Source of the DNA: a virus
Lineage: Duplodnaviria > Heunggongvirae > Uroviricota > Caudoviricetes
Direction: 5' to 3' (one strand)
Virus record (IMG/VR): IMGVR_UViG_2713896790_000012
Length of the DNA stretch: 38,455 nt
Shown here: positions 15,660 to 16,725 of the stretch, one piece after another
Layout: each line of letters begins with the position of its first letter
Numbering within the stretch: the stretch's first letter is position 1
Program-made: the position numbers and the translations under genes
Notes under the pieces: generated by a model
What the model saw: the letters and a program-made list of their open reading frames with translations, nothing else
Databases searched by the model: none
What the model was told of the DNA's origin: nothing

Positions 15660-16725
15660 TCCTTACTCTGGCATCAACCACATTAATATTGATCGCCACA
15701 GGCTGGGGATGTTCATTATCTTCCACCGTTTCGATCTCTTTGCGCAGCTTCTGGTTTTCCATTCTGCGTCGTTCAATTTCCAGTTCCTGTAGCCGCTTAT
15801 CTGCACATAAAGCCCCGCCAGCAGAAAGCAAACGCAACAATTCACGCCGGGCGGCAGCCTTATCCTCCAGCAGGATCTCAACGCCGAATTTTCCGAGTTT
15901 TGCCCCTGCATATAATTGCCGCGCATCCCCATCAAGCAGAGTGGTATCAGCCATATAAAGCTGTCCCGTTCCCTCACCGCAGCACTTCGGGCAGTCCGGA
16001 TTGGGTATGGCGTTATCAACAAAGCCGAGGCCTCCATATTCCGGTTCGGGTTTGCCATCTCTGGAAGCCTGCGCCGCTGCCTTGTCGAATTCTGCTATAT
16101 CGCGCCACTGGTAGAGATGATTCTCGCCCCAGCAATAACGGCAGTTAACACGGCGAAATTGTGCAAGCTGATTGGGGTCGGCCAGGACAATGGCCATCAA
16201 CTGACTCACCAGTAAATCCAGGTCTGCGGTATAGCGTTTCTGGTACTGATTGCGGAAGTAGCTGATAGCGCGAAAAACCCTGGCATTTCTAAGCATACGA
16301 CTGGCGTTGCTGTTAGCTGTCGCACCTTGCCCCTCATAACCGGCTAGTCGGTACGCCTCTGTCGGCTTTTTCCCCTGAGCAACAAGCATCGCAAACTTAG
16401 CCTGCTGGTCAGAAATGCCGAATTCATCGGGACAGAACGAAAATTCCTCCGCGTCGCCCTCATTCAGGCCCGCATCGAATACTGGCTTTTTTTCCTGAGA
16501 TTTTTCGTTCCGCTTTTGTGCAGTCTGCGCAGATTTTTTCTGCGCACTTTTTTGCGCAGTTTTGCGCATTTCTGTCTGCGCATTTTTCGGAGGTTTTTTG
16601 ATGTAACGACGGGCTGTTGCGTAATTCAGTCCCCTTGCTTCACACCATGCCACCGGAGATATACCGGAGCGGGTGTATTCAGCAATATACTCCTGCTGCA
16701 ACGCCCCCCAGTCCGGTCTGCTCAT
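15631..16725 (-). CDS. Terminase small subunit (DNA-recognition subunit)
   Basis: 364 aa, N-terminal HTH-like segment (SPVAWCEARGLNYATARRYIKK), basic low-complexity linker, overlaps terL start. Confidence 0.6.
   Translation of the reverse strand: MSRPDWGALQQEYIAEYTRSGISPVAWCEARGLNYATARRYIKKPPKNAQTEMRKTAQKSAQKKSAQTAQKRNEKSQEKKPVFDAGLNEGDAEEFSFCPDEFGISDQQAKFAMLVAQGKKPTEAYRLAGYEGQGATANSNASRMLRNARVFRAISYFRNQYQKRYTADLDLLVSQLMAIVLADPNQLAQFRRVNCRYCWGENHLYQWRDIAEFDKAAAQASRDGKPEPEYGGLGFVDNAIPNPDCPKCCGEGTGQLYMADTTLLDGDARQLYAGAKLGKFGVEILLEDKAAARRELLRLLSAGGALCADKRLQELEIERRRMENQKLRKEIETVEDNEHPQPVAININVVDARVRSDEDDLSDA
16526..16581. repeat. Array of five palindromic TGCGCA hexamers, each followed by a T-run, inside terS
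   Basis: Plus strand: TGCGCAgatttttt / TGCGCActttttt / TGCGCAgtttt / TGCGCAtttc / TGCGCAttttt with starts at 16526, 16541, 16553, 16563, 16576. Confidence 0.6.

Follow-up and report, generated by a model that had tools for sequence, protein, structure and literature searches.

In phage P1, the closest described system, Sternberg and Coulby and Skorupski and colleagues reportedly established that PacA, together with PacB, integration host factor (IHF) and HU, binds and cuts the pac site. P1 pac is a 161 bp segment inside pacA with seven hexamers, and synonymous mutation of these hexamers lowers the P1 titre about 9-fold (PMC10028697). The pac site is still undefined for most pac phages, and that of ES18 has been described as "not known yet" (PMC11260489). 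Here we analyse an array of TGCGCA hexamers at positions 16517-16582 of a 38,455-nucleotide stretch of viral DNA (IMG/VR record IMGVR_UViG_2713896790_000012, hereafter the window), which lies within terS, the gene for the 364 aa small terminase subunit (15631-16725, minus strand). Judged from its gene content, the whole window is an intact Rac-like lambdoid prophage of Escherichia coli. Our interpretation, to which we give a probability of roughly 0.78, is that the array constitutes that part of a headful pac site which TerS recognises, the site being of the P1 type, with a single cluster and no GATC or Dam control. The most fitting description is a P1-type pac recognition array found in a new context, namely a TGCGCA core, one cluster, a Terminase_2-type TerS and a lambdoid prophage. 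A preliminary description of this DNA had proposed a pac or TerS recognition site here, and comparison of sequences supports that proposal, with evidence of selection at the DNA level, of homology to PacA and of the matching of recognition helix and hexamer.

The gene is assigned as terS by its match to Pfam Terminase_2 (PF03592; 35.1 bits against a gathering cut-off of 26.1, E 2.5e-8, aa 122-321) and to phrog_51 (E 1.7e-76), in agreement with the preliminary description. The array occupies terS nt 143-209, that is codons 48-70, encoding NAQTEMRKTAQKSAQKKSAQTAQ, and consists of six slots, one degenerate and five perfect. The degenerate slot (16517-16522) has one mismatch, reading TGTGCA on the plus strand and TGCACA in the coding sense, and is a perfect TGCGCA in several close relatives. 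The perfect copies lie at 16526-16531 (tcT-GCG-CAg, S65 A66 Q67), 16541-16546 (agT-GCG-CAg, S60 A61 Q62), 16553-16558 (acT-GCG-CAa, T56 A57 Q58), 16563-16568 (aTG-CGC-Aaa in another frame, M53 R54 K55) and 16577-16582 (aaT-GCG-CAg, N48 A49 Q50), and the start-to-start spacings of the six slots in coding order are 14, 10, 12, 15 and 9 bp. Five evenly spaced copies at 16526-16581, each followed by a T-run, had been described; all five are there, the last of them ending at 16582, while their spacing (15, 12, 10, 14 bp) is roughly regular and not even. T3-T6 does occur on the plus strand 0-2 nt after every copy, as the complement of Lys AAA/AAR codons whose placement is not conserved. Since the family-wide flank consensus of the hexamer is weak, A-n-TGCGCA-R-A only, the T-runs are mostly Lys codons and no conserved part of the motif. 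TGCGCA is not globally enriched in the window, with 19 occurrences against 15.2 expected; 5 of these 19 fall inside 57 bp, and it is the only non-homopolymer hexamer reaching five copies in less than 60 bp anywhere in the window, the runner-up having three.

Four of the five copies encode x-A-Q within a Lys-rich low-complexity linker, and close relatives differ in copy number by gain or loss of units, both as expected if the hexamers simply followed from selection for a peptide repeat ([TS]AQK) or from a recent slippage duplication, with no function at the DNA level. The use of frames and codons argues otherwise. In the window array four copies are read as xxT-GCG-CAr (N/T/S/S-A-Q) and one, out of frame with these, as aTG-CGC-Aaa (M-R-K); the two Ser codons ahead of Ala-Gln, AGT and TCT, belong to separate codon families but share the final T. 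When terS was resampled synonymously, with the protein held fixed and codons drawn from the phage's own usage, the probability of at least five TGCGCA given the protein was 9e-5, and that of any complex hexamer reaching five copies was 1.3e-3. Relatives in IMG/VR with 85-100% amino-acid identity keep the six slots with 4-6 perfect copies and turnover among slots; the residue ahead of Ala-Gln is N, T, S or G and its codon ends in T every time, the out-of-frame copy survives an M to V replacement as gTG-CGC-Aaa, and occasional copies are lost by single substitutions (TGTGCA, TGCGTA, TGCGCG). Conservation at synonymous positions is evident as well, with variable third-codon positions among 37 alleles of the window lineage amounting to 1 of 12 in the hexamers, 8 of 43 in the helix-turn-helix (HTH) codons and 114 of 265 in the remainder of the gene. 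Across 102 non-redundant homologous genes TGCGCA is used in all three frames (380, 111 and 28 occurrences) and in more than 35 peptide contexts, including TAQ, SAQ, IAQ, NAQ, VAQ, TAH, PAQ, C-A, VRT, LRT and MRT, and there is no repetition of the flanks past A-n-hexamer-R-A. The array is thus selected at the DNA level and coding does not explain it, in line with the earlier expectation that coding alone was unlikely to account for the palindromes; an origin as by-product of a peptide repeat or of slippage is largely refuted and can be considered effectively excluded.

Immediately ahead of the array, terS codons 1-45 (16591-16725, minus strand) encode an HTH domain that we propose as the reader of the hexamers. 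Alignment by hhalign of this TerS domain with residues 1-50 of P1 PacA gave a probability of 93.4% and an E-value of 2.5e-7, with PacA 3-40 aligned (GLNYATARRYIK in TerS, NLNPNTARRYLR in PacA), while a pairwise BLAST of the two gave E 0.006. The window TerS also matches phrog_1711, the PacA family, at E 6.5e-5 (P1 PacA itself at E 4e-202), and PacA in turn matches phrog_370, the family of the TerS of phages RothC and PhiR12_3 and of Shiga toxin (Stx) phages. Judged from these alignments, the N-terminal HTH of TerS is homologous to the N terminus of P1 PacA, and the P1 analogy drawn in the preliminary description goes beyond resemblance, with the hexamers placed in the equivalent stretch of pacA. 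The P1 genome annotation has TGATCA/G hexamers at pacA nt 194-233 and 324-380, to either side of an IHF site and of the cleavage mapped at pacA nt 275-285, and they use the same two predominant frames as the TGCGCA arrays, xxT-Gxx-CAx and xTG-xxC-Axx.

An AlphaFold2 model of the TerS N terminus has helices at residues 6-20, 24-31 and 35-43, with a predicted local distance difference test score (pLDDT) of 77-88. The third of these, YATARRYIK (codons 35-43, 16597-16623, minus strand), is the presumptive recognition helix and contains R39, encoded at 16609-16611. It is followed by a basic linker (codons 46-100, 16426-16590, minus strand) whose DNA carries the array, as had been noted for this basic low-complexity segment; pLDDT drops to about 50 over aa 45-80, which indicates that this part of the linker is disordered. 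A conventional small-terminase body with its own HTH starts at about aa 105, and the Terminase_2 region proper (codons 122-321, 15763-16362, minus strand) comprises the oligomerisation region, the body's HTH lying around aa 108-158. A search of PDB sequences with TerS and with the N-terminal profile returned no solved relative, the sole hit being to the Pam5 small terminase (21di_E), weakly and over aa 108-158, and Foldseek with the AlphaFold2 model found no significant match (best E 0.89), its list consisting mostly of HTH DNA-binding domains.

In order to follow the array through the TerS family, we performed a profile-guided scan with one genome per species, which yielded 72 loci in Enterobacterales, Pasteurellales, Vibrionales and Alteromonadales, to which loci from IMG/VR were added. 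Whether the proteins compared are about 40% identical overall or related at the N-terminal domain only, an array is found at the same place in all: TGCGCA x6 plus a second group of 3 in Klebsiella prophage-derived phages, TGCGCA x7 in PhiR12_3, and TGCGAA x4-9 in Yersinia, Providencia, Klebsiella RothC and Pasteurella phages. The sequence and length of the linker are highly variable among homologs and the hexamers persist, piling up 19-95 nt past the Ala codon of A[KR]RYI and being rare in the 600 nt upstream and in the remainder of the gene. The exception is one large subgroup with a second cluster at about +236 to +274; thus terS of the Klebsiella/Enterobacter type has 5-6 TGCGCA between +26 and +84, and a further three, at +236, +248 and +274, that sit in the conserved body and encode IAQAIAQ. 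The 5' end of the window terS is itself common: 882 of the 5,426 complete E. coli genomes have it, FDAARGOS_1058 with a 100% match. Many database open reading frames (ORFs) of this family are 44-100 aa long, their stop codon falling within the A-rich array and linker, and some of these ORFs come from complete genomes; homopolymer errors in sequencing, slippage at the A-runs or, in defective prophages, genuine frameshifts could account for this. Such fragments (44-79 aa) also made up most of the output of a second protein database search with the N-terminal profile, which served only as alignment for structure prediction.

The residue at TerS position 39, R or K, tracks the hexamer type family-wide. 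Counting arrays within 100 nt in the 102 non-redundant genes, helices of type A-R-RYIK were accompanied by at least four TGCGCA in 74 genes, by three in 5 and by none in 6, with no TGCGAA array; those of type A-K-RYIK were accompanied by at least four TGCGAA/TTCGCA in 14 genes, by three in 1 and by none in 2, with no TGCGCA array. There are hence no crossovers between helix type and hexamer type (79 A-R-RYIK/TGCGCA genes, 15 A-K-RYIK/TGCGAA genes). A reverse scan, starting from the DNA, led to the same helix: among 81 sampled IMG/VR clusters of three close TGCGCA, an ARRY[ILV]K helix immediately precedes 54 and ARRHIK at least four more, and the remaining ones inspected are simple tandem repeats or GC-rich DNA. 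A further variant, SARRYLK, is found with TGCGCA x7 in an Aeromonas phage.

Several gene pairs reveal that reader and array travel together. Genes of the K and R types are up to about 99% identical over the first 95 nt and diverge from codon 33 on, and in a poorly resolved tree of the short domain the K types are interspersed among R types. The terS genes of PhiR12_3 and of the Stx phage VT2-Sakai are 94-100% identical outside nt about 55-390, and the swapped segment holds helices 2-3 and the array, TARRYIK with TGCGCA x5 in the former and TARTRIK with YGATCA x4 in the latter; further downstream, a pair of TGCGCA has decayed in VT2-Sakai to TGTGCA plus TGCGCA. In Rac-SA53 (KU052037), where a deletion has produced a gene annotated as a gpO-terS fusion and the HTH is gone, only 2 of 6 hexamers are intact (TGCGCA, TGCGCA, TTCGCA, TGCGCT, TGCCCA); the neighbours of this terS are heat-labile enterotoxin IIa genes. 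The TerS of Actinobacillus phage vB_Apl-pPE4 has a body 77% identical to that of the window (aa 91-335) and an unrelated N-terminal HTH, and its linker DNA contains GTTTCCAC / GTGGAAAC repeats in place of hexamers, with GTTTCCAC present twice and inverted GTGGAAA(C) two to three times. Because a different HTH is here paired with different repeats, the layout of an HTH followed by its own array may be general beyond the PacA-like domain. One partial hit, H204, was considered as a recombinant and rejected, since it is an IS1 truncation. Single-linkage clustering of the C-terminal bodies merged nearly all of them, and PHROG assignments were used in its place: the HTH-array module is joined to at least three TerS bodies (phrog_51/Terminase_2, phrog_370 and PacA). 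It is also paired with large terminase subunits that are not detectably related, as between the window TerL and PacB by BLASTP, and the gene neighbourhoods differ, with lysis genes, DUF2560 genes or others upstream. With bodies, TerLs and neighbourhoods all differing, TerS is the only constant partner of the array. These gene comparisons indicate that helix and hexamer type are co-inherited and exchanged together as a cassette.

The same comparisons bear on the possibility that nucleic-acid structure is what is selected, either as hairpins in terS mRNA that tune translation, for instance the TerS:TerL ratio, or as antisense terminators on the plus strand. Folding of the window array is indeed strong, with the sense RNA of 16500-16605 at -31.7 kcal/mol (z = -6.0) and four terminator-like hairpins with T-runs on the plus strand of the array (16526-16590) where 1.4 would be expected per 1.2 kb, and a Klebsiella TGCGCA array folds too (z = -3.5). 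The TGCGAA arrays, however, occupy the same position, lack self-complementarity and show no folding (z = -1.1, +1.5 and -1.8), so that structure is best seen as a consequence of placing a palindromic site among Lys codons. Selection for structure would also leave unexplained why the hexamer type tracks the recognition helix and why the array decays after HTH deletion, and the T-runs that it would require are Lys codons of unconserved placement. We consider it very unlikely; the antisense terminator-like hairpins are probably a by-product, which could nevertheless block antisense transcription.

A protein might, on the other hand, bind the hexamers for a purpose other than packaging, be it TerS in autoregulation of late or terminase genes, a host factor or the HTH product of a neighbouring gene. 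TerS bound to its own gene could in principle repress terS, and a candidate neighbour exists in an 83-aa ORF directly upstream (16729-16980, minus strand), whose product matches the middle of the small-terminase family phrog_309 (E 8e-23). Arrays nevertheless accompany the PacA-like HTH in phages that have neither the 83-aa ORF nor any other common neighbour, there is no promoter-like site in the array region, and the homologous P1 array is an experimentally defined pac site, a precedent with which an autoregulatory or other-protein role would have to coexist. Such a role in place of packaging is unlikely in our opinion. The 83-aa ORF itself overlaps the 3' end of the preceding gene, and by its match may encode a second small DNA-binding packaging accessory, or be a remnant.

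The recognition part of a pac site is hence the function that we favour for the array, and its partner in cutting would be the product of terL (14349-15659, minus strand), a large terminase with ATPase and nuclease domains (Terminase_6N, E 3.7e-33; Terminase_6C, E 5.8e-11). terL overlaps the end of terS, and the array lies upstream of terL and the portal gene. Relatives of the window TerL are found in Jersey-, Kaguna- and Dhillon-type siphoviruses, which we take to be headful packagers, and the related TerL of PhiR12_3 carries the annotation "T4-like headful". As to the binding of the HTH to the hexamer, its stoichiometry, the position of the cut and the direction of packaging, our model is inferred. 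TerS would carry an extra PacA-type HTH (aa 1-45), tethered to the Terminase_2 body through a flexible, basic linker some 55 aa long, so that several tethered HTHs of a TerS oligomer could each bind one TGCGCA, the orientation of the hexamer being irrelevant since it is palindromic. Five or six sites at irregular 9-15 bp spacing would nucleate the terminase on the concatemer at terS itself; TerL, the presumed partner, would make the first cut near the array, and later cuts would be made by headful.

Several observations weigh against this interpretation or narrow it. The window lineage has no second hexamer cluster, the next TGCGCA in the window terS being at nt 985 and one-mismatch copies scattered, and an IHF consensus scan found none in or near the gene; the P1 architecture is therefore incomplete. 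The palindromes of the array form strong hairpins in RNA and DNA alike. The helix ARRYL goes with TGATCR in P1 but with TGCGCA in the Aeromonas phage, hence there is no simple one-residue code, and five marine homologs (from Alteromonadales, Shewanella, Psychromonas and Colwellia) have ARRYIK, short linkers and no array, so that their pac signal must lie elsewhere or differ. The gap from the helix to the first hexamer is only 15-20 nt, and K and R alleles arise by recombination, not by independent mutation; the perfect association of helix and hexamer thus partly reflects physical linkage. Our literature search turned up no experimental packaging data for any TGCGCA-type phage. The ON470xxx "phage" records that match the window are treated in work on phages found within clinical E. 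coli isolate genomes (10.1101/2022.06.29.498070), and our search yielded no data on packaged ends for these records. The break of record PV189402 at the end of terS was considered as a mapped end and rejected, as it coincides with the start of terL.

A broader reading, which we favour slightly, is that packaging specificity in many gamma-proteobacterial phages, among them Rac-like and Klebsiella prophages, Yersinia and Pasteurella phages, Stx phages and P1, is set by a "reader-plus-site" cassette, self-contained and some 300 bp long, within terS. It would comprise the HTH recognition helix and the short-repeat array matched to it, the latter embedded in the DNA of the adjacent disordered linker, which can carry a site because a disordered linker tolerates almost any codons. 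Swapping of the cassette by recombination between near-identical terS genes would produce discrete specificity classes, namely TGCGCA, TGCGAA, YGATCA/TGATCR and, with an unrelated HTH, GTTTCCAC; in the closest pair of classes, Arg or Lys in helix 3 tracks C or A at hexamer position 5. The literature searched did not contain this pattern of paired helix and hexamer classes swapped as a linker-DNA cassette, Stx phages included; that search yielded nothing relevant linking TGCGCA or TGCGAA to terminase or pac, and we found no description of TGCGCA- or TGCGAA-type arrays in the wider literature on pac sites, lateral transduction and PacA.

If correct, the combination of a PacA-like HTH and a hexamer array would be a simple sequence rule that predicts the packaging start of the window prophage and of many prophages of Klebsiella, Enterobacter, Proteus, Vibrio and Pasteurella as well as of Stx phages. 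The origin of lateral transduction of flanking host genes would become predictable, and the array would offer a minimal cis element for packageable phagemids. The pairs R/TGCGCA and K/TGCGAA would be a natural protein-DNA specificity pair for testing how small terminases read DNA, and the pattern of matched helix and hexamer cassettes makes packaging specificity directly testable. The P1 pac paradigm would then extend beyond P1, and Dam control would not be intrinsic to such sites.

The gene content of the window fits the Rac-like assignment, with recE/recT, racC, kil, sieB, trkG and lysis genes, followed by the packaging and head genes, all on the minus strand. trkG, a potassium-uptake moron (18770-20245, minus strand), separates the lysis genes from the packaging module, an arrangement shared with K-12 Rac. 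The region 16916-18632 (minus strand), directly upstream of the packaging genes, contains a gene for a TET-associated-glycosyltransferase-like protein (PF20691, E 6.5e-35; annotated "beta-glucosyl-HMC-alpha-glucosyltransferase" in PHROG). It adjoins a gene for a ParB_N-domain protein, presumably the homologue of ynaK of K-12 Rac, and no TET/JBP gene is evident; judging by these domain matches, the pair could be a DNA-modification module. Runs of N, masked or unresolved stretches, in the window (1096-1187, 1438-1487, 1708-1757, 20594-20643 and 24910-24959) are all away from the array.

Among known packaging systems, lambda shares with the window a small-subunit N-terminal HTH and several repeated elements by its own gene: the N-terminal HTH of gpNu1 reads the repeated R3, R2 and R1 elements of cosB beside its own gene and positions the large subunit. 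Lambda nonetheless uses a cos site, with IHF-dependent bending and cutting at unit length; its R elements are 16 bp long and lie upstream of Nu1, and its HTH is winged. The window has 6-bp elements in coding DNA and a TerL, probably of a headful type, whose family is not that of GpA. With P22 / Sf6 and SPP1 the window would have in common a pac signal in or near terS and headful packaging. P22, however, has a single asymmetric site of about 22 bp, without hexamer array and with a TerS outside the HTH family of the window. SPP1 likewise lacks a hexamer array and that HTH family, and its pacL, pacC and pacR are recognised largely by shape (PMC4737164). LF82 phage Gally, with a pac peak mapped within terS, was considered as a relative and rejected, its 140-aa TerS being unrelated.

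Stx phages of the 933W/VT2-Sakai type are closer, their TerS (phrog_370) sharing the PacA-like N-terminal domain, with a hexamer array in the linker DNA behind it, and the same N-terminal domain occurs in more than 200 Stx-phage records. In VT2-Sakai terS (L365:1201-2007) the TARTRIK helix goes with four YGATCA at 12-bp spacing, encoding IDHEIDHKTDHEIDH; this helix, the array with GATC as in P1, and another type of C-terminal body set these phages apart from the window. Since the YGATCA array contains GATC like P1 pac, the pac site of 933W/Sakai-type phages may by analogy be Dam-sensitive. 933W is terminally redundant and a generalized transducer (PMC3752737).

P1 remains the nearest counterpart. 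There, too, the pac site is made up of irregularly spaced 6-bp elements that follow the HTH codons within the 5' part of the gene for the small subunit, with spacings of 7, 12, 15 and of 12, 11 bp in its two groups, compared to 9-15 bp in the window. The two differ in extent, since P1 pac has seven TGATCA/G in two groups (HEX4 and HEX3) with an IHF site and a central cleavage region over 161-162 bp. They differ also in the TerS body, PacA-type in P1 and Terminase_2 in the window, in the large subunit (BLASTP of the window TerL, a Terminase_6N/6C protein, against PacB gave no significant match, best E 0.81), and in the host element, a myovirus phage-plasmid in one case and a lambdoid siphovirus prophage in the other. 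The hexamers of both are of the form T-G-n-n-C-A, with a core of AT in P1 and CG in the window, and as TGCGCA contains no GATC, the window site would not be subject to the Dam-methylation timing control that operates in P1. The bipartite layout of the Klebsiella/Enterobacter-type genes is nearer to HEX4/HEX3 of P1 than is the single cluster of the window.

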